This document shows positions 2,448 through 59,827 of a stretch of DNA of 64,000 bases, piece by piece; within the stretch, counting starts at the first letter, position 1; the number at the start of each line of letters is the position of its first letter. The position numbers and the translations under genes were made by a program. The notes beneath the pieces were generated by a model. It did not search any database. It was not told the origin of the DNA and saw only the letters and a list, made by a program, of their open reading frames with translations. Source of the DNA: Escherichia phage KIT03; sequence record AP018932. One strand, 5' to 3'.

Positions 2448-4267
2448 TACTGGCTCATCCATTCTTTACGAAGGTCAGCATTATCTCCCATGAGCATTTC
2501 AAAAAGCTCTTTCCAGTTCTCAGGAAGTTTAACAACATCATATACTGGGTTTTGAATCATCTCACGATATTCAGATTTTTCCAAAGAGCCAAGTCCCTTA
2601 ATATAACGGATGCTATGTTTAGGTAGAGCATCTTTGGCACTCTCATATTCAGCGACTGTATAAAACCATTCTTGTTTTTTACCGACCTGAGCGATGATTA
2701 CAGGAGTTTTGACAAAGCGAATTCTTCCTTGTTCAAACAGTTCTGGCCAATTACTAAAAAATCCGAGCAGAGAAGGATAAATGCTTCCTAAACCATCATG
2801 GTCAGCATCGGTCATAATAGCAATATTATGATAATTCAAGTTTTCAGCTTTTTCACCAAGAACTAATCCAGTGATTGCGCAAATATCAAACAGTTCTTTG
2901 TTTTTAAGCATATCAGCATATGACATACCCCAACTGTTGAGAACTTTACCACGCAATGGATAACCACCATGAAGTTCTTTATCACGAACATCAATAAGAT
3001 ATCCGATAGCAGAATCACCCTCAGTCAAGAAAAGAGTAGTGTCAGCATCTTTACCGCAAAGATTCGCTTTGATATGTTTATGAACCTTAGCTTTAGAAGC
3101 CTTTTTAGCTGCTTTAGTTTCTGCTGCTTTTTCTGCTGCTAATTTACGTGCTAAAGCAGCTTCAATAATCGGCATTAAAATTGCTTCATTATTTAGAATA
3201 GCGCGTGAAATCTTTTTAGCATCAAGTTGAATATGACTACGAATTTCACCAAAAGGAGAAGTAAGTCGTTCTTTAGTTTGAGAATCAAATCGCATGTTTT
3301 TCATATCACGGACAAACATAACGATAGTCAAACATTCTTTGACACGTGCTTTAGTTACATCAATTTTGAACTTACGTTTGATTTGTGGAATAAGGTCTTC
3401 ACAAATATCATCCATAACACAGTCAATGTGATGGCCGCCATTCTTAGTGTGAATGTTATTCACATAAGTTAATTGACGAAATCCATCCGGTGAACGACCA
3501 ACCGCAATAGAACAATTTTCTTGTTCTTGAACAATAGCATGTTCATCATACTGCCGTGCATATTTCTTAAAATTGCCCTGAACCTTTTTACCATTAAAAG
3601 TAAATTGAATATCAGGATAAACAACAGCAAGTGTCTGGAGACGATCTAGTGTAATGTCAAGATAAACTTGGGACAGCTCATTAGTTTCAAATGACATAAA
3701 ATCAGGAATGAAAGTAACACGGGTTCCTTTCCATTTTCCTGGAATAGTTTCCCAGGATTTATTTTCCATGCCATTTGAACAACGAACTACAATATTATTT
3801 TGACCATCGCCAGTTTCACCGACAAACATCACAGAAAAAATGTTAGTTAAACTAGAACCAACACCATTCATACCACCGGTGACACGTTCTTTATCATCAC
3901 CAAAGTTACCACCTGCTTTTGGAATAGTCCATGCAGCAACAGGACCAGGAATTTCTTCACCGGTAGGTGTTTTAACCATTGCCTGTGGAATACCGCGACC
4001 GTTATCTTCAACTGTTACCTGATTATTTTTAATGGTAACATTAATTTTATTTGCGAATTTAAACTTAGTACGAATACCTTCATCGACTGAGTTATCGATA
4101 ATTTCATCAATAAGCTTAACAAGACCAGGTACATACTGAACACTTTCCCATTTACCAAACAGAAAGCGCTCATGCATTTCATTAGCAGAAGAGCCAATGT
4201 ACATGCCACTACGCTTTTTGATATGTTCAATATCGCTCAGAATTTTAATTTCATTCTTAATCATCAC
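2447..4267 (-). CDS. 39: DNA topoisomerase II large subunit, GyrB-like ATPase; single fused ORF covering T4 gp39 plus gp60
   Basis: 606-aa ORF with GyrB-type ATPase N-terminus and TOPRIM-like C-terminus; uninterrupted, unlike split T4 genes 39/60. Confidence 0.88.
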   Translation of the reverse strand: MMIKNEIKILSDIEHIKKRSGMYIGSSANEMHERFLFGKWESVQYVPGLVKLIDEIIDNSVDEGIRTKFKFANKINVTIKNNQVTVEDNGRGIPQAMVKTPTGEEIPGPVAAWTIPKAGGNFGDDKERVTGGMNGVGSSLTNIFSVMFVGETGDGQNNIVVRCSNGMENKSWETIPGKWKGTRVTFIPDFMSFETNELSQVYLDITLDRLQTLAVVYPDIQFTFNGKKVQGNFKKYARQYDEHAIVQEQENCSIAVGRSPDGFRQLTYVNNIHTKNGGHHIDCVMDDICEDLIPQIKRKFKIDVTKARVKECLTIVMFVRDMKNMRFDSQTKERLTSPFGEIRSHIQLDAKKISRAILNNEAILMPIIEAALARKLAAEKAAETKAAKKASKAKVHKHIKANLCGKDADTTLFLTEGDSAIGYLIDVRDKELHGGYPLRGKVLNSWGMSYADMLKNKELFDICAITGLVLGEKAENLNYHNIAIMTDADHDGLGSIYPSLLGFFSNWPELFEQGRIRFVKTPVIIAQVGKKQEWFYTVAEYESAKDALPKHSIRYIKGLGSLEKSEYREMIQNPVYDVVKLPENWKELFEMLMGDNADLRKEWMSQ

Positions 4268-6750: not shown

Positions 6751-7287
6751 TTAATTTAAAATAGCTACCACCGCACTACGAGGTACTACACTAAAATCAC
6801 CTGCATGAACAACGTTCAGAAGTTCAACACCATCTTCAAACCACTGGTCAGTTACCCAACCACAGACCGAAATAAATGGAGTCTTGATAGCTACCGCATG
6901 AGTTAGAAGGTCAGTAGGATCGCATTCTTGAAAGAGGATGAACTCTGCTTCATAAACCAGGATTTTCTCTATTTTGTTATTGTCTAAACGACGACCGTGG
7001 ACAATATAAGATTTAGTAAACCATTTACTTTTTTCAAAATCTTCAACAATAAATTCGCCTTCGCCAAAAACATCAGTCAGAGTTTTATGGCCGGAAATCA
7101 AGGCATTAGTTTTAATTTCAGGTTCAACCAGTTTGTAGGTTTTGCCAATTTCGATGGTCCGAGCAGTCATAAATGTTTCCTTAATTTCTAATGGTTTAAC
7201 AAGGGTGCCGTACATGCTTGCTATATCCATATCAAACGGTTTATCTACAGGATTCGGTGTGTATTTAGGATTATAATTAAATTTCAT
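6751..7287 (-). CDS. hypothetical protein, 178 aa; paralog of 6177-6674
   Basis: shared C-terminal motif with neighbour. Confidence 0.5.
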   Translation of the reverse strand: MKFNYNPKYTPNPVDKPFDMDIASMYGTLVKPLEIKETFMTARTIEIGKTYKLVEPEIKTNALISGHKTLTDVFGEGEFIVEDFEKSKWFTKSYIVHGRRLDNNKIEKILVYEAEFILFQECDPTDLLTHAVAIKTPFISVCGWVTDQWFEDGVELLNVVHAGDFSVVPRSAVVAILN

Positions 7288-7289
7288 AA

Positions 7290-7802
7290 TTATTTCATTT
7301 CAATAAAATCTATGAGTTCAGCATGCGATTTGCGGAACATTACTTGGTGCCCGCCAATGATAACTTCATCTTCAGGAACTTCATAAATCGCAATGTACAT
7401 TCCACGATCTTTTAAGTCTTCACGCTCTTCTCGGGTGAACCATCTCATCATATCATATTCACTAGCGAAAGCAAAATGATATAATGAAATAAGCCACAAT
7501 GGAATATAATTTTCAAATTGTGAATAATCTTTATTCCATTTAGTTTTAATAGCATCATTAGCATTTTCAACTAATAACTTATCATCGTGTGGAATAGGAA
7601 TACTTTCATGGCTTTCATAATTATCGCTATGATGATGAAATGACGATGAATTAATACCGCAAAATTTTAGCCAAGTTCGAGTTTTCATAGAATCAAATCC
7701 ACGATAAGGAGTTGATTGAACGCATAACTCTTGCCTAATTTTCACTATACCACTATCATCATTTAATGCGCTAAACGATGATTCAACACGATAAATTTTC
7801 AT
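7290..7802 (-). CDS. hypothetical protein, about 170 aa
   Basis: start moved to ATG at 7800-7802 (GAGGA RBS) because ORF-track start 7841 lies inside the promoter. Confidence 0.5.
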   Translation of the reverse strand: MKIYRVESSFSALNDDSGIVKIRQELCVQSTPYRGFDSMKTRTWLKFCGINSSSFHHHSDNYESHESIPIPHDDKLLVENANDAIKTKWNKDYSQFENYIPLWLISLYHFAFASEYDMMRWFTREEREDLKDRGMYIAIYEVPEDEVIIGGHQVMFRKSHAELIDFIEMK

Positions 7803-11780: not shown

Positions 11781-12383
11781 TTATAGATTAAATCCTTCAA
11801 AATCAAGAGTATAGATAGTGTATGTTGAATACTTTTTATACTCATATCTATCTGCAATTCTAAATACACTTCCAGCTGGTATCATTACTTCTTGTTCATC
11901 TGAAACTAATTCCATATTACGATAACGATGGCTATCCGGAAACTTAAAGTTTGGATTGTATTCTTTACAGCGTAGAGCTTTTATAGCATACTCCTGGAAA
12001 TTGAATACCATAGGAGCTTTGAATTCAAAAATAACCTGTGTGTTATACTCTAAACCGGAAGCAAAATGTAAAGCTATATTTTTATCATATGAAGCTGATA
12101 CGACTTTATCAAATGTAATAATATCAATTCCTTGATTTAACACCTGCTTAGTCTCAGCTGGAACACCTCTCCAAAGAGGTTTATCGTTTGGAACCAAACG
12201 AGATTTGATTATTTCATTTAACCAAGTATGGTCATCTGGCTTATTAGTAATACAATGAATTAAAAGTTCAATTTCAGATAAATTAAACCCTTCAGAAAGT
12301 AATTCTTCACGAATAGAAGCACGCACCGATGCATCCATTGATTTTATTTTAAAATCTTTTAGTTGCATTACTGAGTATTTCAT
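11781..12383 (-). CDS. modA: ADP-ribosyltransferase ModA
   Basis: 200 aa equals recalled T4 ModA length; tandem with 207-aa paralog. Confidence 0.7.
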   Translation of the reverse strand: MKYSVMQLKDFKIKSMDASVRASIREELLSEGFNLSEIELLIHCITNKPDDHTWLNEIIKSRLVPNDKPLWRGVPAETKQVLNQGIDIITFDKVVSASYDKNIALHFASGLEYNTQVIFEFKAPMVFNFQEYAIKALRCKEYNPNFKFPDSHRYRNMELVSDEQEVMIPAGSVFRIADRYEYKKYSTYTIYTLDFEGFNL

Positions 12384-13003
12384 TCAACTACCTCAATATC
12401 ATAAACTTTAAATGTTCCAAATGAATCGTGTAATTTTTCTTTTGAAATAGAAGTTATTTTATACTTTCCAATTGGAATCATCCATTCTTGTTCATGCACA
12501 GTCATCATTAAGTTATCAGTACGCTCTGAATCTAACCCATCAGTATCTTCATATGTATACTTAAACTCAGTATTAGGAGAAGAAAGTATAATATCGCTGA
12601 TATGGTCAGAGTAATTAAAAGCTTTATCAGTTTTTAAGCGAAGTATTGTTTCAGTGAAATATTCAGCATAAGAAAAAGAACACGCTGTATGCAAACTAGT
12701 AGTAAATGAATCTACCCTGTTCGTTGAAAACACTTCTCCAACTTGTAAATCTTTAATGAGTTCTTTTGTCGATTTTGATATACCACGATATAACTGATAA
12801 GGCGATTTAGTTAAATGCTTTTTAATGATTTTATTCAACTGTCTGTGAAGAGCTTCATTCTTTTTGGCTTCCATACATTGCCAAAGAATTGATTGTTCAA
12901 AATCAGTAAACTTTTCACAAACCTTTTTATACATATCATATTGAAAATCAACGCTTTCAGCTTTTATAGATAACTGTTCAACATCTGCAAGATTAATAAT
13001 CAT
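12380..13003 (-). CDS. modB: ADP-ribosyltransferase ModB
   Basis: 207 aa equals recalled T4 ModB length; paralogous to modA. Confidence 0.7.
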   Translation of the reverse strand: MIINLADVEQLSIKAESVDFQYDMYKKVCEKFTDFEQSILWQCMEAKKNEALHRQLNKIIKKHLTKSPYQLYRGISKSTKELIKDLQVGEVFSTNRVDSFTTSLHTACSFSYAEYFTETILRLKTDKAFNYSDHISDIILSSPNTEFKYTYEDTDGLDSERTDNLMMTVHEQEWMIPIGKYKITSISKEKLHDSFGTFKVYDIEVVE

Positions 13004-13019
13004 GATAGCCTCCGTATAC

Positions 13020-15202: not shown

Positions 15203-15460
15203 TTAACCACCAATACCTGGAGTTGGCGTAACAGTCCAAAGACCTTCATTAGCAGTGATCCATTCAGTACGCTGATTTTCTTCATATACTGTAGAATATG
15301 CTGCTTTTTCAGAAGGGAATGTCTGATAATGAGCACCAGAAATTTTGTGAACATCAGAATAAAGAGGGAAAGCTACAGAAATTTCTTTACCCTGAATTGT
15401 ACCACCATCAACTGCTTGGTCAAATGTTTTGATATTAACATAACCGCGAGTACTAGCCAT
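15203..15460 (-). CDS. soc: small outer capsid protein Soc
   Basis: 85-aa ORF beginning MASTRGYVNIKTF with FPLYSDVHKISGAHYQTFPSEKAAYSTVYEENQRTEWI, matching recalled T4 Soc. Confidence 0.9.
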   Translation of the reverse strand: MASTRGYVNIKTFDQAVDGGTIQGKEISVAFPLYSDVHKISGAHYQTFPSEKAAYSTVYEENQRTEWITANEGLWTVTPTPGIGG

Positions 15461-15476
15461 GTAATTCTCCTTTTAT

Positions 15477-15686
15477 TTAAATTACATGATTATTTATAAT
15501 AAATTCTCGCGGAACGTTAAAATATCCGATTTTAGTTAATATAACAACATCACCATTAATAATTACCGGAGAATAATCTTCTGAAGCATTAAATTTCCAA
15601 TGGGCTCTAATATTATATCCATCAGAACCAAATGCTCGACTAGCCGTTCTCCCGGCTTTTTGCCATGCATAAAAATCAAATTTCAT
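15477..15686 (-). CDS. hypothetical protein, 69 aa
   Basis: ORF. Confidence 0.45.
   Translation of the reverse strand: MKFDFYAWQKAGRTASRAFGSDGYNIRAHWKFNASEDYSPVIINGDVVILTKIGYFNVPREFIINNHVI
15491..15498 (-). promoter_or_regulatory. late promoter TATAAATA for soc
   Basis: exact TATAAATA on minus strand about 30 nt upstream of soc ATG, followed by AAGGAGA RBS. Confidence 0.6.
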
Positions 15687-15886
15687 TTTGAATGCTCTAT
15701 AATTAATTTTAAGGCTTCTTCACGCACCAACTTGTCTAATGGTATATGCCCAGTTTTAATTGTGTAAGCTTTGTGGAGCTGATTAGATAAGAGCTCGTAT
15801 GTGAGCTCTTTGTCATAATCTTTAAATAGCTGGTCAATACGTTTCTTGCGGGCTTTCTTAAGCTGGCGTTTATTTAAACGAGCCAT
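15683..15886 (-). CDS. hypothetical protein, 67 aa
   Basis: ORF. Confidence 0.45.
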   Translation of the reverse strand: MARLNKRQLKKARKKRIDQLFKDYDKELTYELLSNQLHKAYTIKTGHIPLDKLVREEALKLIIEHSK

Positions 15887-16404
15887 TAATAGCCTCTGTC
15901 TTGACGAGCGAAGTTTTCAGCATTTTTCAGATAATAAAGTTTAAATATTTCTTCAGCTGACATTCCAAGAGCAATAAATTTATTCATGAAAAAGTGAAAT
16001 TGGTCAATCAGTTCAAATTTAATTTCAAGCTGATCTTCAGGAGATAAGTCTTGAATTTTCTTGGATTGCATTTCAGAATAACGTTTCTTCCAAGGTTTCC
16101 ATACAGCAGAAGCTTCTTTTTCACCATTACTCATACCACCAAGAGAAGTATATAGCTCGCGAGTTTCGTCTGCGATATAATCGTCTTGGTTTCGCAGCCA
16201 AGCAAGAACTTCTCCTGCAGTTTCAAGTGAATCAGGATGACGATTTGTTTCTGGTTTATCATTAGCCAAACGAATCTGTAAATGCCGCTGCATGTCAAGC
16301 ATAACCTGCAATGGGTCAATACTGTGCATAATATACTCAGCATATGCACGATTTGCTTTATCAACACCTTCGATCAAATGAGCACATTCGTTAAAGTAAG
16401 CCAT
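15886..16404 (-). CDS. 56: dCTPase/dUTPase gp56 (MazG-like)
   Basis: start set to ATG at 16402-16404 (172 aa, close to recalled T4 gp56 171 aa); ORF-track N-terminal extension is antisense of a plus-strand ORF. Confidence 0.75.
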   Translation of the reverse strand: MAYFNECAHLIEGVDKANRAYAEYIMHSIDPLQVMLDMQRHLQIRLANDKPETNRHPDSLETAGEVLAWLRNQDDYIADETRELYTSLGGMSNGEKEASAVWKPWKKRYSEMQSKKIQDLSPEDQLEIKFELIDQFHFFMNKFIALGMSAEEIFKLYYLKNAENFARQDRGY

Positions 16405-16438
16405 TATTTTTCCTTTCAATTCATGGGTTAGTAGATTA

Positions 16439-16462
16439 ATTATACAATAAATATATAAAGCA
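16439..16462 (-). promoter_or_regulatory. middle (MotA-type) promoter for gene 56
   Basis: minus strand TGCTTTA - 11 nt - TATAAT. Confidence 0.5.
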
Positions 16463-16475
16463 ATAAGGAGGACAT

Positions 16476-16676
16476 ATGGTACAAAAATTAATGGCACTTG
16501 TTAATGCCATAAAAGGTAATAAAAAACGTATAGCTTTTACTATTTCTGCTATGGTAGGAATTTTACTCTGGAACTTTATTTTATCACCAATTGCAATTGC
16601 ACATGGTGTTAATATTCCAGTAGTTACTCTTGATACATTCGTAGATCTAGCATTTGCTTTAGTTGGGTTAATTTAA
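16476..16676 (+). CDS. small hydrophobic protein, 66 aa, on the opposite strand
   Basis: AAGGAGG 4 nt before ATG; two hydrophobic segments; sits in the otherwise non-coding 56-61 interval. Confidence 0.4.
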   Translation: MVQKLMALVNAIKGNKKRIAFTISAMVGILLWNFILSPIAIAHGVNIPVVTLDTFVDLAFALVGLI

Positions 16677-18226: not shown

Positions 18227-18269
18227 ATTAACCTTTATTCATAAAAGCATTAAAAATTTGATCGTCAAT
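18221..18269 (-). repeat. about 45-nt direct repeat, copy 2
   Basis: matches 17861-17910 with 3 mismatches. Confidence 0.7.
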
Positions 18270-18854
18270 AGAAACTTTTACTTTAGGCTGTTCTTCAAAC
18301 GGTAATTCATATCCACATATTACAATTTTGTGATCGATACCAAAATGCACAGAAGCAATATGATTAATGTTATTTTCAGTAAAGTCTAAATCAACATCAA
18401 TATCTTTTTGACCACAGCCCAAAGGATAAATAATGCGAGTAATTCGATTATCTTTAACAAAGATTCCACCGACATACTCTGTGCTGAGTTTAAAGTCTAC
18501 ACGCCGACGAAATGAAAAATATTCAGGCTCTTTATGAGCTCGGCTCATAGGACACAACGAGTAACTAGAATAAGAGATGTCAAATCCTACACCTTCAATA
18601 TGAGCCAAAGTATTACGATTAAACCAATTATAATCGTACGCCAAATCCATTAGATTATAATATGTAAAAGGCACCGGATTAACATCATTAGTCACAAGCA
18701 TGTAATTAGCAACTGCTATAATTTCATTGTTTTTAACGAATACAAACCGTGATTGATGCGAATGACCTGGACCCGCGTTTTCACGATTAATGATATAACA
18801 CTGGGCACCTTTATATTTGTATGTATCTTTGCACTTGTGCATTTGATAGAGCAT
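18228..18854 (-). CDS. hypothetical protein, 208 aa, C-terminus DDQIFNAFMNKG (T4 61.2 position)
   Basis: ORF; paralogous tail. Confidence 0.55.
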   Translation of the reverse strand: MLYQMHKCKDTYKYKGAQCYIINRENAGPGHSHQSRFVFVKNNEIIAVANYMLVTNDVNPVPFTYYNLMDLAYDYNWFNRNTLAHIEGVGFDISYSSYSLCPMSRAHKEPEYFSFRRRVDFKLSTEYVGGIFVKDNRITRIIYPLGCGQKDIDVDLDFTENNINHIASVHFGIDHKIVICGYELPFEEQPKVKVSIDDQIFNAFMNKG

Positions 18855-21507: not shown

Positions 21508-22663
21508 TTAACTGCTCAAGGTCAGTTTCTAAATCAGCAGCTGATTTACTTTTACTTTCTGGAGATTTAAATTTTTCAACCTTTGAGTTAATCAATTCAT
21601 CAACTTCAGCTTCAACAATTTCATTACTATCAATAGCACCTAACTGATAAGCACGTTTAATAGCATCTCGGAATGGTTGATGCTTAAATAAAGGACCCCA
21701 GAATGTAGTGCAGTTGGTATCTTTTGCACGCCAAGATTTTTCTTCGCGAATCATCTCGCCGGTTTCTTCATCAAGAAATTCACGAGCATACCAACCATTT
21801 TTAGGTTTTACCACGAATCCTAATTCTAGAGCCATATCTAACAATCCAGAATAAGGATCGATACCGCCGTCAAATTTAACATCAATAAAGAATTTACTTT
21901 TTTCTTTAACGGTACGAGATTTTTCTACATTTAGAACAAATTGATACCCTTGAAGATCAGAACCATCTTTAATCTGACGTTTACCGATAATGAATACGGT
22001 ATCAGCCGAATACATTACGCCTGTACCACCTGTCATCACGGTTTTACTAAACATTTCAATTGTTTCAATTGTATGGTTAACCGCAACACATGGAATGTTT
22101 TTAATACTAAAATAAGGAGTAACAATACGGAATAATGACTTCAGTGATTTAGCACGAGTCATATCTGCCACAGATTTTTCATTCAAGGCATCTTCCGTTT
22201 CTTTCTTAGAAGCCATATTACCAATTGAGTCGATGAATACAATAACTTTTTCACCACGCTCAATAGCTTCAAGCTGATTCACCATATCAATTTTCAGCTG
22301 TTCAACTGACTGAATTGGTGTATGAATTACTCGTTCCGGGTCAACTCCCATGGATCGCAAATAAGCTGGAGTAATACCAAATTCGCTATCATAGAATAGA
22401 CATACCGCGTCAGGATATTTGTTCAAATACGCCGCAACCATAGTCAAAGACATATTTGATTTAAAGTGTTTAGAAGGACCTGCAAAAATGGTTAAACCAG
22501 ACTGCATACCACCATCAATCGCACCAGAAATAGCGATATTAAGCATTGGGATTTTTGTACGAATTACATCCTTTTCATTAAAGAATTTAGATGTAGTCAG
22601 TTCAGCAGTCATTTTAGAAGTGGAAGCTTTAATCAAACGGGATTTTAAATCTGCAATAGACAT
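21482..22663 (-). CDS. uvsX: UvsX recombinase (RecA-like)
   Basis: 393 aa; RecA fold motifs. Confidence 0.9.
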   Translation of the reverse strand: MSIADLKSRLIKASTSKMTAELTTSKFFNEKDVIRTKIPMLNIAISGAIDGGMQSGLTIFAGPSKHFKSNMSLTMVAAYLNKYPDAVCLFYDSEFGITPAYLRSMGVDPERVIHTPIQSVEQLKIDMVNQLEAIERGEKVIVFIDSIGNMASKKETEDALNEKSVADMTRAKSLKSLFRIVTPYFSIKNIPCVAVNHTIETIEMFSKTVMTGGTGVMYSADTVFIIGKRQIKDGSDLQGYQFVLNVEKSRTVKEKSKFFIDVKFDGGIDPYSGLLDMALELGFVVKPKNGWYAREFLDEETGEMIREEKSWRAKDTNCTTFWGPLFKHQPFRDAIKRAYQLGAIDSNEIVEAEVDELINSKVEKFKSPESKSKSAADLETDLEQLSDMEEFNE

Positions 22664-22740
22664 TCATTTTTTCCATAGGCATCATTATATTTTCCTCACT
22701 GGTTAAAGATAGAGTAATTATAACACAATAAATTTAGGCA

Positions 22741-23589
22741 TTAATCAACTGCTATTGGATGAATAGCATTAAACTTATGAAACGCTTCTGATTTTTCTTT
22801 GCGCGAAACACACATGCGAAGAACCTTTAATGGCTCGTCTTCTTCACCCAACGATTTTCTCTTTTCAATATTCGATGTTTTCCAACGAGCTTGCTCTGGA
22901 AACTCTCTATTGATTTGCTCAAGAGCTCTATTATGTTTTGAATTACTACGAATTGAACTGCACCCGCCCGGAGCCTGTGCTTTTCCAGATACAACCAGAT
23001 ATTTGAACAAGGCCAAATGCGGATAACCTTGATTAATTAAATTGAGAAATGCATACATATCTTCGCATAAATCAATTTTTCCATACCCAATTTGTTCTGT
23101 TGTAAGTTTCCCGAGGTCATACCAAGTATTCGTGAATCCATATGAATTTTCACGATAATTACCCCAAGATGAAGTAATTTTAAAAATAGGTAGACGAGCA
23201 TGACCGTGATAATACCCGCAATCCATGGCATCTTCCACGTATTGAATCAATTCATAGAACTGTTCACGAGTTAATTGATTAATTTTATCTACACAGCGAC
23301 GATCATCTTTCTTTCGCATTGAACTCATACGAATAGTAGTATCATCATCAATCATCCAGATTCGTTGACCTGCATACATATCAGTAATTGCTTTACGAGT
23401 ACCAGCAATTCCATTAACATCATCAGGAATAGTTATAATTTTGGCTTTAGACCCGTAAGCGTCATAATAAGCTTTTTCTTCGTGTTCACGTACTACAATA
23501 TGAGGTTCATAATCAGTCGGAAACATATCAAGGGCAGAAACTGCCCCTACGCGTTGATAGCTTGGAATTACGAATTGAATCATTTCCAC
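22741..23589 (-). CDS. DNA glucosyltransferase, 282 aa, at the T4 beta-gt position; possibly T2/T6-type
   Basis: ORF between uvsX and 42; shorter than recalled T4 beta-gt (351 aa). Confidence 0.5.
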   Translation of the reverse strand: MEMIQFVIPSYQRVGAVSALDMFPTDYEPHIVVREHEEKAYYDAYGSKAKIITIPDDVNGIAGTRKAITDMYAGQRIWMIDDDTTIRMSSMRKKDDRRCVDKINQLTREQFYELIQYVEDAMDCGYYHGHARLPIFKITSSWGNYRENSYGFTNTWYDLGKLTTEQIGYGKIDLCEDMYAFLNLINQGYPHLALFKYLVVSGKAQAPGGCSSIRSNSKHNRALEQINREFPEQARWKTSNIEKRKSLGEEDEPLKVLRMCVSRKEKSEAFHKFNAIHPIAVD

Positions 23590-24320
23590 TCACCATTATA
23601 ATCTTTTTTCACAATATGAGTTTCGCCAGTATTCCACCAATGATCAACCAAGTAAAAATGACGAGAATATACATGAAGACTTCCAACATTCCATATAATA
23701 GAACCTGCTTTATACTGACGAGTTGAATCACCTGCATTCAAATCAGATACTAATTTATCTAGTACGTATTTTTGCCATGCATAATCATTACGGAATCCGA
23801 AGACCACGTCATTTGAACGCATGCTTACTACTGCATTGACTTTCTTATCACGAATCAGGTATTGTACTGTATTCGTACACATGAAATCTGACATACCATC
23901 TTTATTGTAGTCAAATTGCATGGATGGACGAGTATAAATCATGATACCGCGTCGAGAATCAGGATTTTGACCAAGTTCAGCTAAACACATATCATATTGG
24001 GCATAGTTATCTTCTGACCAGATGGCCCAACCATAATTCGAATTAATTTCGCCTTTAGAAGATGCTACCTGTTGCCAAATCTTCGGTGTTTCACCTGGAA
24101 TATCTTTAACAAACAAACTTTTAGATTTATACCATTCAAGTTCACGCTGAATGTATTCATCATTAAGAGCGCCAAAAATAAATGGTTCATCTGCTACAAA
24201 TGATGCGCCAATAATTTCAATAGTTTTAACGCCAGTTTTATCAACTACGAAATCTTTTTCCTTTAATGCAAGCCCCAAATGAAGACGGATTTCTTCAACT
24301 GTCATAGAGTCACTAATCAT
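23580..24320 (-). CDS. 42: dCMP hydroxymethylase gp42
   Basis: 246 aa equals recalled T4 gp42 length; thymidylate-synthase-like. Confidence 0.88.
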   Translation of the reverse strand: MISDSMTVEEIRLHLGLALKEKDFVVDKTGVKTIEIIGASFVADEPFIFGALNDEYIQRELEWYKSKSLFVKDIPGETPKIWQQVASSKGEINSNYGWAIWSEDNYAQYDMCLAELGQNPDSRRGIMIYTRPSMQFDYNKDGMSDFMCTNTVQYLIRDKKVNAVVSMRSNDVVFGFRNDYAWQKYVLDKLVSDLNAGDSTRQYKAGSIIWNVGSLHVYSRHFYLVDHWWNTGETHIVKKDYNGEWK

Positions 24321-31648: not shown

Positions 31649-33331
31649 TTAAACCATTACAGTAAATCGACCAACTTTCTTCATTTGAAGATGCTGACCA
31701 TATTCTTGTGGGTCATGGTCTTTATGCGAAATTATAAAAACATTAGTGTTTTTCATTGAATTTATAATATTAGCTACACCTTTAATACCTTCGGCATCAA
31801 ATGACCCATCAAACACTTCATCAAGAATTAATGTACTAATACTAACACCAGATACGATAGAAGCAATATCACGCCAAGTAAATAAAAGAGCAATATCGAT
31901 TCGTGCCTTTTCACCTTCACTAAATGAAGCATAACTAAAATCTTCACGACCACGGGATTTAATTGTCTCATTAAATTCTTCATCTAATGTAAACACATAA
32001 TCCGCTTCCATTATTTTAAGATAATGGTTAATCTGCTTATTGAATAATGGAATGTACTTTTTAATAATAGCACCTTTAATACCAGAATCTTTGAGCATAT
32101 CAGTCAAAATTCCTCGGTGGTATTTTTCCATTACTAAATTAGTTTTTGTCTTAACAATTTTATCAAGTTCTTCTTGAAGCAGTGCTATTTCATCAGCATG
32201 GTCAATAAACTCAGAAGATGCTTTTTCTATAGCTGCTTTAACTTTTTTAGCTTTATCTACCGTCGTGATTAGAGATTGCTTTTTATTGCGAATATCATTT
32301 GCCAACGACTGCTGGGTTTTAATATTATCTCGGTATTCATCAACAAGAACTTTTAAATTATCACGATGTGTTGAAAGCTGTTCAAACGAATGCGTGCATT
32401 CAGAAACTTTATCTTTAATTTTAGAAACAACTTTATCACCGGAACTTAATTGTGACAAGCAGGTTGGACATAATCCACCTTCGTGATACATATTAATGAC
32501 TTTATTATACGAGTCAATTTTTGATTTAATTAAAACTGCTTCTTGACCGATTTTATTAAATGCATCAGTCGGGTCTTCATCCAAAACAATATTAACTAAT
32601 CTTTCATTAGCTTCTTCTATTTCCGATTTTAGCGTTCTAGCTTCTTTTGCCAAATCATCATACATATTTTGTAGACGAGTAAGGTTGTCACCCGTTAATT
32701 TTTTCTGGCGTTCAACGTTATCATTATATATTTTAATTTGTTGGATAATACTATCTTTTTTAACATCAAGCACTTGGTTTTGTGAATTTAATTCACGTAT
32801 TAGCGCTTTATTAAGCTTATCCATTTCAGCTAATGTTCCTACCTCAAGCAGGTCTTCCACAAGCTTTCTTCGCGCAGGGGTCGACAAACCCATGAAAGGG
32901 GTATACCCTGCTGTACCAAGGACAACAATCTGCTTGAAACTGGCATATGACATTCCGATAAGCTGTTCAAATTCTGCTTGGAAATCTTTACTGCTGGCAG
33001 ATTCATTAAGACGTGTACCGTTAACGGTGATTTCGAAAACGTTTGGTTTTTGTCCTCTTTTGATATAATACTTTTTCTCATCATATTCCATCCACAGTTC
33101 AACTAAAAGTTCTTTCTTATTTGTGCTGTTTATTAATTGACCTTTCTTTACATCACGAAATGGCTTGCCAAAAAGCCCAAATGTGATGGCTTCTAACATA
33201 GTAGACTTACCACCGCCATTTCGGCCAGTAATAAGAGTTTTTTGAACCTTATCTAATTGAATGTCAACTCCATTTTGACCAACTGACATTATATTTTTAT
33301 ATTTTACTCTATTAAGTTTAAATGATTTCAT
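31649..33331 (-). CDS. 46: recombination endonuclease subunit gp46 (SbcC/Rad50-like)
   Basis: 560 aa equals recalled T4 gp46 length; Walker A GRNGGGKST, long coiled coil. Confidence 0.9.
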   Translation of the reverse strand: MKSFKLNRVKYKNIMSVGQNGVDIQLDKVQKTLITGRNGGGKSTMLEAITFGLFGKPFRDVKKGQLINSTNKKELLVELWMEYDEKKYYIKRGQKPNVFEITVNGTRLNESASSKDFQAEFEQLIGMSYASFKQIVVLGTAGYTPFMGLSTPARRKLVEDLLEVGTLAEMDKLNKALIRELNSQNQVLDVKKDSIIQQIKIYNDNVERQKKLTGDNLTRLQNMYDDLAKEARTLKSEIEEANERLVNIVLDEDPTDAFNKIGQEAVLIKSKIDSYNKVINMYHEGGLCPTCLSQLSSGDKVVSKIKDKVSECTHSFEQLSTHRDNLKVLVDEYRDNIKTQQSLANDIRNKKQSLITTVDKAKKVKAAIEKASSEFIDHADEIALLQEELDKIVKTKTNLVMEKYHRGILTDMLKDSGIKGAIIKKYIPLFNKQINHYLKIMEADYVFTLDEEFNETIKSRGREDFSYASFSEGEKARIDIALLFTWRDIASIVSGVSISTLILDEVFDGSFDAEGIKGVANIINSMKNTNVFIISHKDHDPQEYGQHLQMKKVGRFTVMV

Positions 33332-33346
33332 TTTGTATCCAATTGT

Positions 33347-34201
33347 TCACAATGAAGAAAATTCTTTAACTAAAGCCTGTAATGAAGCCTCTATTGGATA
33401 TCCATTCTTAACTAACATTTTCCTAAACATTACATGTTTAGGACGATTATATGATATCCACAATTCATACAATTTATCTTTATTATCCCAATGATAGCCT
33501 TTTCGTCGAGATGCTATATGAGCTTTTCTAATCTCCGGATTTTTCCAACTAGCAGCTACTGAATTTGATATAGCTATTTTATATTCAGGTTTTGATAAAG
33601 CAGCACGAACAGCCTTTTGGTGTTTAATTTTATTTTCTTCGTTATTAAACCATTCCCTTGAAGCCATTGAAATTTTTTGTTTTGTTTTAAAATTATTTAA
33701 TCTTTCTTTATTATCTTTCCTATTTTTTGCTACTGAAAAATATTTTAATGCCCTTTCTCTAGCAGCATTTCTATTTTGCGGATTTGAATAATACTGTTGA
33801 AGCCTTTTTGATATTGTGTCACTTACATCTTGTTTTATAAAACTATACTCAGCAGCTATTAAATCAACTTCGGCTAAAGATAAATTTTTATATGTTTTTC
33901 CTGACATCATTCTATTTAAAGCATTTAGCATTTTTCCATTTTTACCTTTTGCTAATAAGAAGTGTGCTTTAAAATGATTAAAATGACTTAAATTAACTAA
34001 ATTCCATGTAGATTTTAAATATTCAGGAAATATTGATTTAGGAAGCACGTGGTGTGCTTCCGTTTTACCTGGAGTTTTAACAGTTGAATTCACAGAAATA
34101 AAATTAATGTAAGACTTGGCGTCTTCTTCACTCAACGCTAATTTTTCAACTAATTCCTTTATTAAAAATTCATCATTAATGTCAAGTTTAAAATTCTTCA
34201 C
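33347..34201 (-). CDS. free-standing HNH homing endonuclease, 284 aa
   Basis: HH...N...H motif (EAHHVLPKSIF...NLVNLSHFNHFKAHF) and basic C-terminal DNA-binding region. Confidence 0.65.
   Translation of the reverse strand: MKNFKLDINDEFLIKELVEKLALSEEDAKSYINFISVNSTVKTPGKTEAHHVLPKSIFPEYLKSTWNLVNLSHFNHFKAHFLLAKGKNGKMLNALNRMMSGKTYKNLSLAEVDLIAAEYSFIKQDVSDTISKRLQQYYSNPQNRNAARERALKYFSVAKNRKDNKERLNNFKTKQKISMASREWFNNEENKIKHQKAVRAALSKPEYKIAISNSVAASWKNPEIRKAHIASRRKGYHWDNKDKLYELWISYNRPKHVMFRKMLVKNGYPIEASLQALVKEFSSL
33347..34201 (-). mobile_element. homing endonuclease gene inserted between genes 46 and 47
   Basis: T4 has only small ORFs here (recalled); N-terminal motif duplicated in next ORF. Confidence 0.5.
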
Positions 34202-52634: not shown

Positions 52635-53648
52635 TCATTTATAATAACTTCGATGGTTTTCAAGATAGACCTTCTCAAGGAAGTCATCCCAGAAACCCAT
52701 GTCTACTTTTTGCTGCATACCGTTCTTAGAAGCTTCAGTAGATGCTGCTTCTACTTGATCGACCACATCTTCCAAAAACTCTTGAACTGTTTTAAATGGA
52801 TGTTTACCCAACTTCACGTCGAGAATAAATGGAGCGTCTTGAAGTGGATAAACTAAGTCACCAGTTTTGTAAATTTCCAATAGTTGAAGTCCACCACGAC
52901 AGGCATGGCTCAGAGCTTTCCAGTCAATACCTTCATTGGCTTCGGCCTTACGAGCACGTTCACCATATTCAGCATCTAATTTGTTCAGTGACTGCTTAAG
53001 CTCAATAAGAGAAAGCGTTGTCTGATATTTACGACCCAACACAGTGTAGAACGTTTGTGGACCTGTTTTCTCATGATTATGGAACACCCATTCACAGAAT
53101 TCGTTTTCTGGAAGACGATGCTTAATATCTTCAATTTTAGTGCGACGTTGTCCTTGTGTTCCATCTTCTCGGTAGACATTCCGTTGATCAGGAATTTGAT
53201 TAATTACTTTCAACACATCACGTAATGCAGCTAGACGAGAACCTTTAACACCATATTTAGAAGCTTGCTTGCGAACATATCCTAAATAGGATTTCATGTT
53301 AGTCGTATAAAAACGAGAACGGTTGTCTTGAATAAACTTCCACACATCAGGCAAATCAGATTTAACTACTAGCTCAGGTGGAGTGTGAAGCATATCCAAT
53401 GCTACGGTTTCACCATCTGCTGCTAATTTAAAGAAATACTTAAGACTATACAATTCATGGTCAATATCATCTTTAGTGTTTTTAGATGATGTGTTGTTAG
53501 TGTTTTTACTCATATGCTCTTTAACATTTCCGATAAGAATATCGCGAGCAGGAGGAACAAAAATTTCTTTAAAATCTACATCAGATTCTGGGGTAGAAGT
53601 TCCATAAAGATGACTACCAAAATAGCTTTTCATTACTGTTTTCATCAT
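52635..53648 (-). CDS. predicted nucleotidyltransferase (Pol-beta-like fold), 337 aa
   Basis: N-terminal GS...SDVDF motif (YFGSHLYGTSTPESDVDF). Confidence 0.55.
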   Translation of the reverse strand: MMKTVMKSYFGSHLYGTSTPESDVDFKEIFVPPARDILIGNVKEHMSKNTNNTSSKNTKDDIDHELYSLKYFFKLAADGETVALDMLHTPPELVVKSDLPDVWKFIQDNRSRFYTTNMKSYLGYVRKQASKYGVKGSRLAALRDVLKVINQIPDQRNVYREDGTQGQRRTKIEDIKHRLPENEFCEWVFHNHEKTGPQTFYTVLGRKYQTTLSLIELKQSLNKLDAEYGERARKAEANEGIDWKALSHACRGGLQLLEIYKTGDLVYPLQDAPFILDVKLGKHPFKTVQEFLEDVVDQVEAASTEASKNGMQQKVDMGFWDDFLEKVYLENHRSYYK

Positions 53649-54106
53649 TCAGCCTTATATTCAATAACAGGACATACTTTAGCTTTACGAGCTTTTAAAA
53701 ATTCAACGATAATCGATTTCTTGGGTTGAATAGGAGGTAAACCTTTATTTTTCCTATCAATGTTTTCTACGTGTAAAGCATAATCCTTTTTCCATTTATA
53801 ATCTTTATATTTTTCACGCAAATGTACAGGAATAACAAATGAACTGATAATAAGTAAAACAACCAAAAGCGCAAGTATAAATGCTGATGGAAGCAAAGTC
53901 CATAAACTACCGAAAATAAGCCAACGCTGTAGGCTTTCTGCACAAATAATTGTTAGCCCTACGAGTATAGCACACCCGAAAATAGAAACGAAAAATGTAG
54001 GAATGGCAATAGACCAAAAATATGCGCATAGTGTCTTAGGTCGTTGCCATTCATCGTTAAACAATTTGAATAATTTATAGTGCCAAGAGTTTTCATTAAT
54101 AATCAT
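53645..54106 (-). CDS. membrane protein, 153 aa
   Basis: two long hydrophobic segments. Confidence 0.5.
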   Translation of the reverse strand: MIINENSWHYKLFKLFNDEWQRPKTLCAYFWSIAIPTFFVSIFGCAILVGLTIICAESLQRWLIFGSLWTLLPSAFILALLVVLLIISSFVIPVHLREKYKDYKWKKDYALHVENIDRKNKGLPPIQPKKSIIVEFLKARKAKVCPVIEYKAE

Positions 54107-54108
54107 AA

Positions 54109-54630
54109 TTATCCTTTCATTGAAGGCGTAACGGTTGTTAAATACTTAATCATAGCTTCAGCTTCTGATTTTGATAATGAAATTTCTCCATTGTTTTGAC
54201 GAATAGAAATAAAATCCGGATGACGGTCACCACCAGCTTTTAAAACACACATATAAGTATCAACTTCGCCTTCAATATTTGAAATGATTGAAGCAGTTCC
54301 ACATGAATGTGGTTTTTGATAAATCAATGCAGCTTTTCTTCCACCGTTTGACTGTTCATAAACTTTTAACACATCAAACAAATCGCTTCTTTTATCAATA
54401 GCTAAGATGTTGTTTTCATCTTCAATGTTAAATCCTTCGGATACTTCATAAAGTGTCACCCATAAATCACCTATATCGATAGTAGCATTTCCTTTTCCAC
54501 GACTTTCAAGAATATGACAAATTTTCTTGATTTCGTCATAACTCATTTTAATAATATCATCTCCTTGAATAAGGAAGATGTCATTTTTAAATTCAACACG
54601 AATTAAACCACTTCCACTTGAAATAAACAT
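54109..54630 (-). CDS. hypothetical protein, 173 aa, paralog of next gene
   Basis: C-terminal SEAEAMIKYLTTVTPSMKG resembles DEAIALKTYLDSVIPTMISK. Confidence 0.5.
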   Translation of the reverse strand: MFISSGSGLIRVEFKNDIFLIQGDDIIKMSYDEIKKICHILESRGKGNATIDIGDLWVTLYEVSEGFNIEDENNILAIDKRSDLFDVLKVYEQSNGGRKAALIYQKPHSCGTASIISNIEGEVDTYMCVLKAGGDRHPDFISIRQNNGEISLSKSEAEAMIKYLTTVTPSMKG

Positions 54631-56876: not shown

Positions 56877-57089
56877 TCATTTTTGTCCTGTATTTACTTT
56901 ATGCCGATGCACGGCCTTAACTTTATCAAGGTATTTTTCAAAATTTCGCAATCTAGTATAGTCTGCCGGAGATTGGTTGAGTGATACTTCTCGACGCAAA
57001 GCTGAAATGATATTTCCAACTTCCCTACGAATTTCATCTAATTGAAGAACAGTAAGATTGCGAAGTTGCTTTTCAGTTAATTGTAGCAT
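56877..57089 (-). CDS. hypothetical protein, 70 aa
   Basis: ORF with AAAGGGG RBS. Confidence 0.5.
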
Positions 57090-57114
57090 ATATACCCCTT
57101 TAGTTAGATAAACC

Positions 57115-57122
57115 TATTTATA
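57115..57122 (-). promoter_or_regulatory. late promoter TATAAATA
   Basis: exact TATAAATA on minus strand about 26 nt upstream of the 57089 ATG. Confidence 0.55.
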
Positions 57123-57131
57123 ACTTTTGCA

Positions 57132-57713
57132 CTAACCGAGCTTTTTAGTTAATTCATTCCAATGTTTTCTACACAAAGAAACATAAATTTCATCACCAAT
57201 ACAGATTTGATTACCTTCTTTAACTGGTGTTCCATCTTCCATTAATCGAGCTGTCATAATCGCTTTTTTGCCACAATGACAAACTGCTTTTAGTTCAATA
57301 AGTTTATCAGCAATCGCTAAAAGTTCTTTAGAACCTTCAAATAATTTTCCGGCGAAATCAGTCCTTAATCCATAAGCCATAACAGGAACATTATATGTAT
57401 CAACAATTCGACTCAATTGATGCACTTGTTCAGTTTTTAAAAACTGAGCTTCATCTACAAATACACAATGAATATCTTTTTGTGCTTCAGCCCATTTATA
57501 GAACTCGAAAATATCCATATCATCTGTAATAATATTCGCTTCCTGTTTAATTCCAATGCGAGAAACGACTTCACAGACAGAATCGCGAGTATCAATAGCA
57601 GGCTTAAGAACTAATACACCCATTCCGCGTTCTTTATAATTATGCGCAGCAGTCAAAAGAGAAGCAGATTTTCCAGCATTCATTGCTGCATAAGTAAAAA
57701 TTAAACTCGCCAT
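57132..57713 (-). CDS. tk: thymidine kinase
   Basis: 193 aa equals recalled T4 Tk length; Walker A AMNAGKSA, C-terminal zinc cysteines. Confidence 0.85.
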   Translation of the reverse strand: MASLIFTYAAMNAGKSASLLTAAHNYKERGMGVLVLKPAIDTRDSVCEVVSRIGIKQEANIITDDMDIFEFYKWAEAQKDIHCVFVDEAQFLKTEQVHQLSRIVDTYNVPVMAYGLRTDFAGKLFEGSKELLAIADKLIELKAVCHCGKKAIMTARLMEDGTPVKEGNQICIGDEIYVSLCRKHWNELTKKLG

Positions 57714-57722
57714 ATCACCTTC

Positions 57723-57908
57723 TTAAAGCGTATTCACATAAGCTATTAATTCATTTTCTTTCTTATCAAACCGATCAGCAAATTCTTCCTGCTGTTCAGG
57801 AGATAGCGGGCCGTATTCATCATAAAAGGTGTTTGCTTCTGTATGCTCATCTAGAAGTTCATGGATAAGCTCAAACAATTTATCTTTTTGTTCTTTGCTT
57901 AGGCTCAC
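57723..57908 (-). CDS. hypothetical protein, 61 aa
   Basis: ORF. Confidence 0.45.
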   Translation of the reverse strand: MSLSKEQKDKLFELIHELLDEHTEANTFYDEYGPLSPEQQEEFADRFDKKENELIAYVNTL

Positions 57909-58077
57909 AGTATGTCAATCCCCAAAAGTTTTAAAATGACTCGTTTCTGATTCATAACCGCTACGATTGAATGACCGTTGGGGTCTTTTTGACCTGATCC
58001 AATTATAAATCCTTTTTGCGCAGAAAGTTTAATCAAAACATCAAGTTCACGTAATAATTGATATTTTAAATCATCAT

Positions 58078-58305
58078 TCATTTTGGTTTACCTTCTTTAA
58101 CGAAATCAGGATAAGGATAAAATCCTGAATAAAATCCTTCACCTTTATGATTGATGCATCTTTTATTAGAACAATAGCACCAATAATCGAAATCACAAGC
58201 CATTTCATCATTACATAAAGCAAAAACAACAGGCCACTTACACTTTTCACAGTGGGCATTTTTAAGAATACTAGTTTGGCTCATAACCATGTAACCTTTA
58301 AGCAA
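58078..58305 (-). CDS. cysteine-rich small protein, 75 aa
   Basis: multiple CxxC-like pairs. Confidence 0.45.
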   Translation of the reverse strand: MLKGYMVMSQTSILKNAHCEKCKWPVVFALCNDEMACDFDYWCYCSNKRCINHKGEGFYSGFYPYPDFVKEGKPK

Positions 58306-58493
58306 TATTCTTCTACATGTTGTTTACGACCTTTCTTATCAATAAAGGTATATTCAACGAATGTTCCAATGTAGTCTTTATCTACATCATGTGGACTATT
58401 AATTGGACATTTAGTACGGCAAATGCGTTCCCATTGACGAATAATTACTGCTTTGTTTTTAGGATCAAACGGATGTGGGTAATGCACTTTCAT
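58281..58493 (-). CDS. hypothetical protein, 70 aa
   Basis: ORF. Confidence 0.45.
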   Translation of the reverse strand: MKVHYPHPFDPKNKAVIIRQWERICRTKCPINSPHDVDKDYIGTFVEYTFIDKKGRKQHVEEYCLKVTWL

Positions 58494-58944
58494 AATCCAC
58501 CACTATTAAATCAATATCAGGAGTAAACATGTCGATTAATTTAGAAACCTTATCCCAATCGCCGCCAGCAATACCACAACCTATGCGTGGAATGTAAATT
58601 ACCGGTTTAAACAAAAGGGTTTCTGCCTGTAGATTTAATTCTATCATGCAGTTTACTAAAGCACCATAATCAAGATTAGGACCTGGTTCGTATTGCGTAT
58701 ACAAGTTATAACATATGCCAAAACCATTAGGTTTATGTTTAAAAACAATAGACATATCGCCTAATTTATCACGAGAACCGTACTCAGTAGTGGTTTTATC
58801 TATTTCTAAAATTTTGGGATAGGCTCTTGCTAATTGACCAGCTACACCACTGCCCATTGTATGAAAACAGTTACACCCGTGCGCAATAATATTACCTTCA
58901 AGAAAGAGGGCGACAATATCGCCCTTGATATATTTTACAATCAT
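58465..58944 (-). CDS. macro-domain protein (ADP-ribose binding/hydrolase fold), 159 aa
   Basis: N-terminal GCNCFHTMGSGVAGQL glycine-rich motif typical of macro domains. Confidence 0.55.
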   Translation of the reverse strand: MIVKYIKGDIVALFLEGNIIAHGCNCFHTMGSGVAGQLARAYPKILEIDKTTTEYGSRDKLGDMSIVFKHKPNGFGICYNLYTQYEPGPNLDYGALVNCMIELNLQAETLLFKPVIYIPRIGCGIAGGDWDKVSKLIDMFTPDIDLIVVDYESALPTSV

Positions 58945-59282
58945 CTAGTACTCAATCCTCGATTATAAGAATCTACCAAACGGTCAACCATTGAATGACA
59001 AGCGGCTTTATCTTTCTCCTCCGCAACTGAACATTCTAAGGTATTCCACTTTTTAGCATATCGTTTTAACAATGTATCATTTTTGTATCTGCTTGATTTA
59101 TCTCTTTCTCCGTCTTTATATGCATATATTAATTTCTGCGCAAATTCAGCTTGACATGCTTTATTTTTCCCGCAATAATCCGCTGCAGTACGGTTTACAT
59201 ATTCTCTAATTTCAGTATATGATGTATCTGCTAACGCAGAAAATGAAATTAATCCTATACATAAAACCAAAATTTTAGTCAT
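58941..59282 (-). CDS. secreted protein, 113 aa
   Basis: cleavable signal peptide; conserved Cys pairs. Confidence 0.5.
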   Translation of the reverse strand: MTKILVLCIGLISFSALADTSYTEIREYVNRTAADYCGKNKACQAEFAQKLIYAYKDGERDKSSRYKNDTLLKRYAKKWNTLECSVAEEKDKAACHSMVDRLVDSYNRGLSTR

Positions 59283-59820
59283 TTACTATTTCCAAAAGTT
59301 TATTATTTTTAAGGTAATTAGCCTTTTCTAGGACTTCAGAAGCATATTTAGAACCTGCTTTAACATTCCATCCCGAATTATAAGAGGATATTGCTTTTCT
59401 TATATCGCCCTTATGTATATTTAACCAATAAGAAAGTTCAATGTACGCCCAGGAAGCTGAATTGGATCGTTTATTCAACATTCTTTTTATTTCAGCATCG
59501 GTCATATTATAACCAAGTTCCTTAACTCTTGCTCGCATAGTAGGCAAATAATTTTGGAACATTCCGTAGGCGTGATGCTTTGGTTTAGATTTTAAATTAA
59601 CTCCACCAGAGCTTTCTTGCCATAAAATAGCAGCCATTATATGACCTAATCCGCTCTTGTGGATATTTTTGTGTGTTTTATATTTTCCATCCTTAGAAAA
59701 CTGTTCCCCGAATTGATACGCGTAACGCATGTTATCGAGTTGGACATTACTGAAAGTATGCTCGGAGCTATGTGCCATCATAGAAATGGCCAATAGACCA
59801 GCGAGTAGTGCTTTTCTCAT
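59275..59820 (-). CDS. secreted lytic transglycosylase-like protein, 181 aa
   Basis: signal peptide; WQESSGG and GMFQ motifs. Confidence 0.55.
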   Translation of the reverse strand: MRKALLAGLLAISMMAHSSEHTFSNVQLDNMRYAYQFGEQFSKDGKYKTHKNIHKSGLGHIMAAILWQESSGGVNLKSKPKHHAYGMFQNYLPTMRARVKELGYNMTDAEIKRMLNKRSNSASWAYIELSYWLNIHKGDIRKAISSYNSGWNVKAGSKYASEVLEKANYLKNNKLLEIVND

Positions 59821-59827
59821 GTTTACC

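Follow-up and report, generated by a model that had tools for sequence, protein, structure and literature searches.

A divergent natural allele of the T4 macrodomain gene tk.4/adfM, with a predicted Gln-type active site, in Escherichia phage KIT03

The DNA analysed here, referred to as the window, is a stretch of 64,000 nucleotides from Escherichia phage KIT03 (AP018932) and belongs to a Tequatrovirus. When it was compared to positions 1-70,000 of T4, 90% of the length of the window aligned, with an identity of ∼94%. An open reading frame of 159 codons with an ATG start, which spans exactly 58465..58944 on the minus strand, encodes a single-domain macrodomain protein. The ATG overlaps the stop codon of vs by 4 nt (ATGA), and the final 29 nt of the gene are shared with the start of tk.3. 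The surrounding gene order, regB - vs.1 - vs - macrodomain gene - tk.3 - ... - tk, is that of the slot that tk.4 occupies in T4, and the window gene is orthologous to T4 tk.4 by both sequence and synteny. The 3.4 kb surrounding the gene was 98.9% identical to Escherichia phage AndreasVesalius and 98.7% identical to Shigella phage Sf22, and a 100% identical protein is present in phage JLBYU31. In many phage records the protein is labelled as a macro domain protein or a phosphatase. There is no toxin gene beside the macrodomain gene, the neighbours being vs and tk.3. A scan of 57000..61500 for promoters and terminators returned 13 promoter-like sites, compared to 16.5 ± 4.1 in shuffled sequence, and no transcription unit could be defined. 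Apart from its divergence, described below, the macrodomain gene belongs to the gene set expected of a T4-like phage.

An earlier note on this DNA had described the 159-aa open reading frame as carrying a glycine-rich, macro-domain-like motif. The motif, GCNCFHTMGSGVAGQL, was found at residues 23 to 38, and the profile searches and structure prediction that the note had proposed as checks both returned a macrodomain. The protein matched the Pfam family Macro, PF01661, above the gathering score (33.1 bits compared to a cut-off of 22; E = 6.1e-8; profile positions 2 to 117 of 118), as well as PHROG 335 (E = 1.8e-71). The AlphaFold2 model, for which 57 homologues were provided as input, had a mean pLDDT of 94.1 and a pTM of 0.89 and displayed the macro fold, a three-layer α/β/α arrangement with a central mixed sheet. 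Its nearest structural neighbours were of the TARG1/DarG/Poa1p/SCO6735/BT1257 type rather than the MacroD or PARG type. These matches and the confident model demonstrate that the product of the open reading frame is truly a macrodomain, consists of this one domain, and belongs to the ALC1/TARG1-like class. The only matches of the protein in libraries of defence proteins and NCBI families were to models of DarG, and both were weak: 27.7 bits for the DarG family model NF048014 (NCBIfam), compared to a cut-off of 250, and 27.6 bits for the PADLOC DarG model.

In sequence, the window protein was about equally close to yeast Poa1p, an ADP-ribose-1''-phosphate phosphatase, and to DNA de-ADP-ribosylases. 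The similarity to Poa1p, together with the 'phosphatase' and 'A1pp' annotations of the family, would be expected of a metabolic enzyme without a target in defence, either an ADP-ribose-1''-phosphate phosphatase or an O-acetyl-ADP-ribose deacetylase, that clears by-products of RNA repair or of sirtuins. However, these annotations were made by homology only, and the match to Poa1p was strong only across the N-terminal half of the protein (residues 3 to 79). ADP-ribose-1''-phosphate phosphatase activity is an in vitro side reaction of many macrodomains. Furthermore, the sole functional test on an orthologue, described below, revealed a DarTG2-specific phenotype. Thus, a purely metabolic function seems improbable.

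Both glycine-rich loops of the macrodomain are present and conserved, and ADP-ribose is predicted to bind in the cleft between them. The predicted first ADP-ribose-binding loop, encoded by 58831..58878 on the minus strand, has a glycine-rich MGxG motif within MGSGVA. The predicted second, diphosphate-binding loop, PRIGCGIAGGDW (residues 119 to 130), is encoded by 58555..58590 on the same strand. Among the 57 homologues, with identities as low as 37%, no variation was seen at H22 (directly upstream of the first loop), G23, N25, C26, G33, A35, D49, L61, N80, Y82, Q84, P119, G122, G124, and W130; all 15 are retained in the T4 allele. Gln84, in the motif NLYTQ, is specified by the CAA codon at 58693..58695 on the minus strand and was found in 57 of the 57 homologues.

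Residue equivalences were taken from the 57-sequence profile aligned to the solved structures of TARG1 and BT1257. Gln84 aligned with the catalytic Lys84 of TARG1 (LITK) and also with the Gln of BT1257 (NMIGQ), and Ala126 was found at the position of Asp125, the catalytic Asp of TARG1. The second loop is of the same type as the corresponding loops of SCO6735 (PRIGCGLAGGTW) and BT1257 (PRIGCGLAGGKW). The window protein is therefore of the Gln type, with Gln in place of the catalytic Lys and a PRIGCGxAGGxW loop that lacks the Asp of TARG1. When a small set of seven macrodomains was aligned with MAFFT, a gap of 2 residues fell at the catalytic position and BT1257 was placed incorrectly, and an hhalign comparison with PhiKZ gp104 had a two-residue offset at the same position, so the 57-sequence profile alignment was relied upon instead. 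The equivalence of Gln84 to K80 of DarG is based on the profile alignment to TARG1 and on a published structural alignment in which TARG1 K84, DarG K80, and SCO6735 Q85 are structurally equivalent (PMC9411070), rather than on residue-level superposition. As judged from these alignments, the active site of the window protein appears not to be DarG-like and to match those of BT1257 and SCO6735. A Gln-type, non-DarG active site is not discussed in the published descriptions of the T4 protein.

The window protein was only 58% identical to T4 Tk.4 (155 aa, gapless; E = 4e-70), whereas the proteins encoded by the flanking genes were 97% (vs), 100% (vs.1), 100% (regB), 96% (tk.3), and 99% (tk) identical to their T4 counterparts. 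The DNA was 100% identical to T4 across 59126..58907, the first mismatch was at 58906, and identity was back at 93 to 100% across 58449..58300. In the intervening core, 58452..58906, nucleotide identity to T4 was ∼30 to 80% in bins of 30 nt. This divergent core of ∼455 bp is a cassette-like allele replacement with sharp boundaries. Of the 155 aligned residues, 65 are different between the alleles, among them residues of the second binding loop, which has AGG in the window and GKG in T4. The window allele is common, as ∼317 phage records contain a protein with 90% or higher identity to it, and T4-type DNA is present in ∼240 records. Intermediate alleles at 81, 78, 75, 73, and 65% identity were also found. 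Comparison of the window with T4 positions 1-70,000 revealed ∼30 patches of low identity that make up 22% of the window and are embedded in sequence that is ∼94% identical; larger ones are at 6751-7800, 15451-16500, 22051-23700, 33301-34200, and 53551-54600. The macrodomain allele swap is one among these ∼30 mosaic patches and is not exceptional for this genome.

Several other features of this part of the genome were observed. A perfect 8-bp hairpin, AGGGCGATATTGTCGCCCT, is located at 58907..58925 on the minus strand, within codons 7 to 13 of the macrodomain gene, and its end coincides exactly with the point at which the match to T4 stops. Its position at the edge of the swap could be due to chance, or the hairpin could mark a recombination boundary. 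Directly downstream of the macrodomain gene, at 57601..58350, is a second replaced block, in which nothing matches T4 tk.1, identity to T4 tk.2 drops to 52%, and other small open reading frames are present, including a Cys-rich one of 75 aa at 58078..58305 on the minus strand. The region of the window that carries internal-protein genes and denV in T4 also differs: at 62401..63000, ipII was only 33% identical over 79 aa, and T4 denV, which encodes endonuclease V, had no tblastn match in the window. In OL964745.1, the record of a mutant T4 clone (T4_7t1), tk.4 is split into two short open reading frames (2474..2906 of the locus examined) by indels relative to reference T4. The possibility that tk.4 is a pseudogene in T4 was rejected because the gene is intact (155 aa) in reference T4 and ∼240 other records, which indicates that the split is specific to OL964745. 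It may reflect a sequencing error or a true loss in a laboratory lineage.

The function of the T4 orthologue has been addressed by genetics. When a T4 transposon library was grown on a host expressing DarTG2, no gene other than tk.4 scored significantly, a clean tk.4 knockout was sensitive to DarTG2, and the gene was renamed adfM, for anti-DarT factor Macrodomain, in a November 2025 preprint (bioRxiv 10.1101/2025.11.20.689424). The same preprint pointed out the structural similarity of T4 AdfM to M. tuberculosis DarG and rated the enzymatic removal of ADP-ribose from DNA only as 'likely' (bioRxiv 10.1101/2025.11.20.689424). The sensitivity of the knockout lends support to the suggestion in the earlier note that a phage macro domain could reverse DarT-type defences, and because tk.4 protects T4 against DarTG2, the window gene can be regarded as a diverged version of a gene already known for counter-defence. 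The presence of a macrodomain is less unusual than the note had assumed, as the T4 Tk.4 record has long been annotated 'contains A1pp phosphatase motif' and a macrodomain is encoded by about 41% of myoviruses (PMC9503650). The macrodomain annotation of T4 Tk.4 and the anti-DarTG2 genetics of T4 adfM are thus already known; what is new here is the divergent natural allele in a T4-like frame and its predicted Gln-type, non-DarG active site.

Studies on SCO6735, the Gln-type macrodomain of Streptomyces coelicolor, bear on this active site. SCO6735 has neither the Lys nor the Asp, yet it efficiently removes DarT-made ADP-ribose from thymidine, an activity that is abolished in the Q85A variant and for which a water-mediated mechanism was proposed (PMC9411070). 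The protein can rescue E. coli from DarT, and a catalytically dead form of it retains inhibition of DarT through a direct interaction (PMC9411070).

The most probable explanation is that the window gene, as the orthologue of T4 tk.4/adfM, encodes a stand-alone ALC1/TARG1-like ADP-ribosylglycohydrolase that acts in counter-defence. Upon infection of a DarTG2 host, the DarT2 toxin would be freed and would attach ADP-ribose to thymidine in TNTC motifs of single-stranded phage DNA, so that replication is blocked. The phage macrodomain would hold the ADP-ribose in the cleft between its glycine-rich loops (residues 22 to 35 and 119 to 130) and cleave the thymine-ribose bond, which would release ADP-ribose and restore replicable DNA. 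The chemistry would be of the Gln type as for SCO6735, with Gln84 positioning the distal ribose and with activation of a water molecule, as opposed to the Lys-based route of DarG and TARG1, two proteins that, like PhiKZ AdfM, have also been shown to take ADP-ribose off thymidine. We infer that the 58%-identical window allele has the same activity and role as T4 AdfM. Hydrolysis need not be the sole mode of action, because catalytically dead SCO6735 binds and inhibits DarT.

Additional genes are of relevance to ADP-ribosylation defences. T-even phages also carry AdfN, a NADAR-family protein that acts against DarTG1, and AdfA (PMC11825919). An orthologue of AdfA (T4 61.2, an inhibitor of DarT1 described by LeRoux et al.) is present in the window at 18231..18854 on the minus strand with 92.8% identity, and the window thus carries, with the macrodomain gene, at least two anti-DarT genes. 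In T4, nudE, ∼6 kb beyond tk.4, encodes a Nudix hydrolase that is active on ADP-ribose; the corresponding position is outside the window. NudE could provide a route for disposal of the ADP-ribose released by AdfM.

The extent of divergence from T4 AdfM raises the alternative that the window allele counters DarT2, or another nucleic acid ADP-ribosyltransferase, in a different manner than the T4 protein does, either by binding the toxin or through a shifted range that includes other DNA or RNA linkages or variants of DarT2. The low identity between sharp boundaries, flanked by proteins that are 96 to 100% identical, is consistent with such a shift, as are the intermediate alleles, the dissimilar second binding loops, and the inhibition of DarT by dead SCO6735 through interaction. 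However, all of the invariant active-site residues are kept in both alleles, as one conserved enzymatic activity predicts, and the divergence need not signal special selection because ∼30 mosaic patches are spread over 22% of the window. Furthermore, SCO6735 was inactive on 5'-phosphate-linked and 2'-OH RNA ADP-ribosylation (PMC11833690). Thus, it seems unlikely that the allele has a mode of action or range different from that of T4 AdfM, and the eraser activity proposed for the T4 orthologue remains the preferred interpretation.

How T4-type phages acquired this eraser can be considered more tentatively. It is possible, although we consider it doubtful, that the T4-type AdfM, including the window allele, represents an independent recruitment of the Gln-type, stand-alone SCO6735/BT1257-like lineage rather than a captured DarG. 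Its catalytic mechanism would then be unlike that of DarG and of the AdfM of PhiKZ, and erasers directed against DarTG2 would have entered phages on two or more occasions. The alleles in the tk.4 slot would be deeply diverged, would be exchanged by recombination, and would tune the range of substrates or toxins, for example via the second loop. The one bacterial homologue that was checked, from Pelagimonas (40% identity), is encoded by a stand-alone gene on the chromosome, and no darT was found beside it. This single case fits an origin of the T4-type AdfM from stand-alone Gln-type macrodomains.

The window also contains, as the earlier note had recognized, a ModA/ModB pair at 11781..13003. 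An NCBIfam search assigned no family to either protein, and identification was decided by identity to T4 ModA and ModB (99% and 97%, respectively). The note had further suggested that the macrodomain might regulate the ADP-ribosylation carried out by the phage itself, and the presence of ModA and ModB in the same genome, together with the ability of TARG1 and SCO6735 to act also on protein substrates (PMC9411070), might be taken to indicate that the macrodomain erases or tunes protein ADP-ribosylation by Alt, ModA, and ModB. However, macrodomain homologues were found in 2774 phage records, including phages of Pseudomonas, Vibrio, Acinetobacter, Aeromonas, and Bacillus, whereas ModA homologues were found in only 927 records, those among the organisms listed being enterobacterial phages throughout. 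The macrodomain is therefore ∼3 times more widespread, is present in phage groups for which no ModA homologue was listed, and is not tied to ModA/ModB. The two loci are 45 kb apart in the window and are not inherited together as a module. The products of Alt, ModA, and ModB are arginine-linked ADP-ribose, a linkage that is removed by hydrolases of the ARH/DraG type and not, as far as is known, by macrodomains. In addition, DarTG2 sensitivity is the only phenotype reported for the T4 knockout. The suggestion of self-regulation thus lacks support from distribution, distance, and linkage chemistry, and it is highly improbable that the macrodomain acts on the marks made by the phage.

These results add to a newly described counter-defence gene a second natural allele that is highly dissimilar in sequence, in a background that is otherwise nearly isogenic with T4. 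The allele pair is well suited to a swap experiment that addresses the tolerance of an ADP-ribose eraser to sequence change and the DarT2 variants or linkages that each allele neutralizes.

Compared to known systems, the window protein is closest to T4 Tk.4/AdfM (NP_049723), which likewise lies between vs and tk.3, is of similar length (155 aa compared to 159 aa in the window), and has in common H22, N25, Q84, W130, and the remaining family-invariant residues. The two differ in the second loop, AGIGKGNW in T4 versus CGIAGGDW in the window, and, owing to a 13-nt difference at the 3' end, the window copy has a tail of 8 residues that runs into tk.3. SCO6735 and BT1257 (Bacteroides thetaiotaomicron) are likewise stand-alone, Gln-type ALC1-like macrodomains with the same type of second loop. 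Unlike the phage gene, however, they are encoded on bacterial chromosomes, they are 25 to 30% identical to the window protein, and SCO6735 is induced by DNA damage and has a longer, mobile loop that clamps DNA (PMC9411070).

Two other anti-DarT factors of T-even phages can be compared with the window protein. AdfN (T4 30.3), of the NADAR family, is likewise an orphan enzyme and strips ADP-ribose off DNA (PMC11825919), but its fold is unrelated and its target is the guanine-linked ADP-ribose made by DarT1. AdfA, in contrast, is a small inhibitor that binds the toxin.

The macrodomain of DarG from DarTG2 (PDB 5m3i, 5m31, and 7omu) differs from the window protein in that the latter has no C-terminal DarT-binding domain, has no adjacent darT, and has Gln84 in place of the catalytic Lys80 (K80 of T. 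aquaticus DarG, corresponding to K84 of TARG1). PhiKZ gp104, which was also named AdfM, is, like the window protein, a stand-alone phage macrodomain. It counters DarTG2 in PhiKZ infection and strips ADP-ribose in vitro from TNTC DNA that DarT2 has modified (Cell Rep 2026; PMC13309987). At 12518..13006 of the locus examined, gp104 matched M. tuberculosis DarG with an E value of 9e-25 and has an FPTK motif with the Lys. Its pairwise match to the window protein was marginal (9 of 31 identities, E = 0.001), and the 96% probability obtained with hhalign reflects similarity at the level of fold and profile only. Thus, gp104 belongs to a truly DarG-like lineage with Lys, in contrast to the Gln-type window protein, and given that the T4 protein also has Gln84, the name AdfM covers two different lineages. 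That these lineages have different catalytic residues matters for annotation and for predicting the escape of phages from DarTG2, a defence found in clinical strains.
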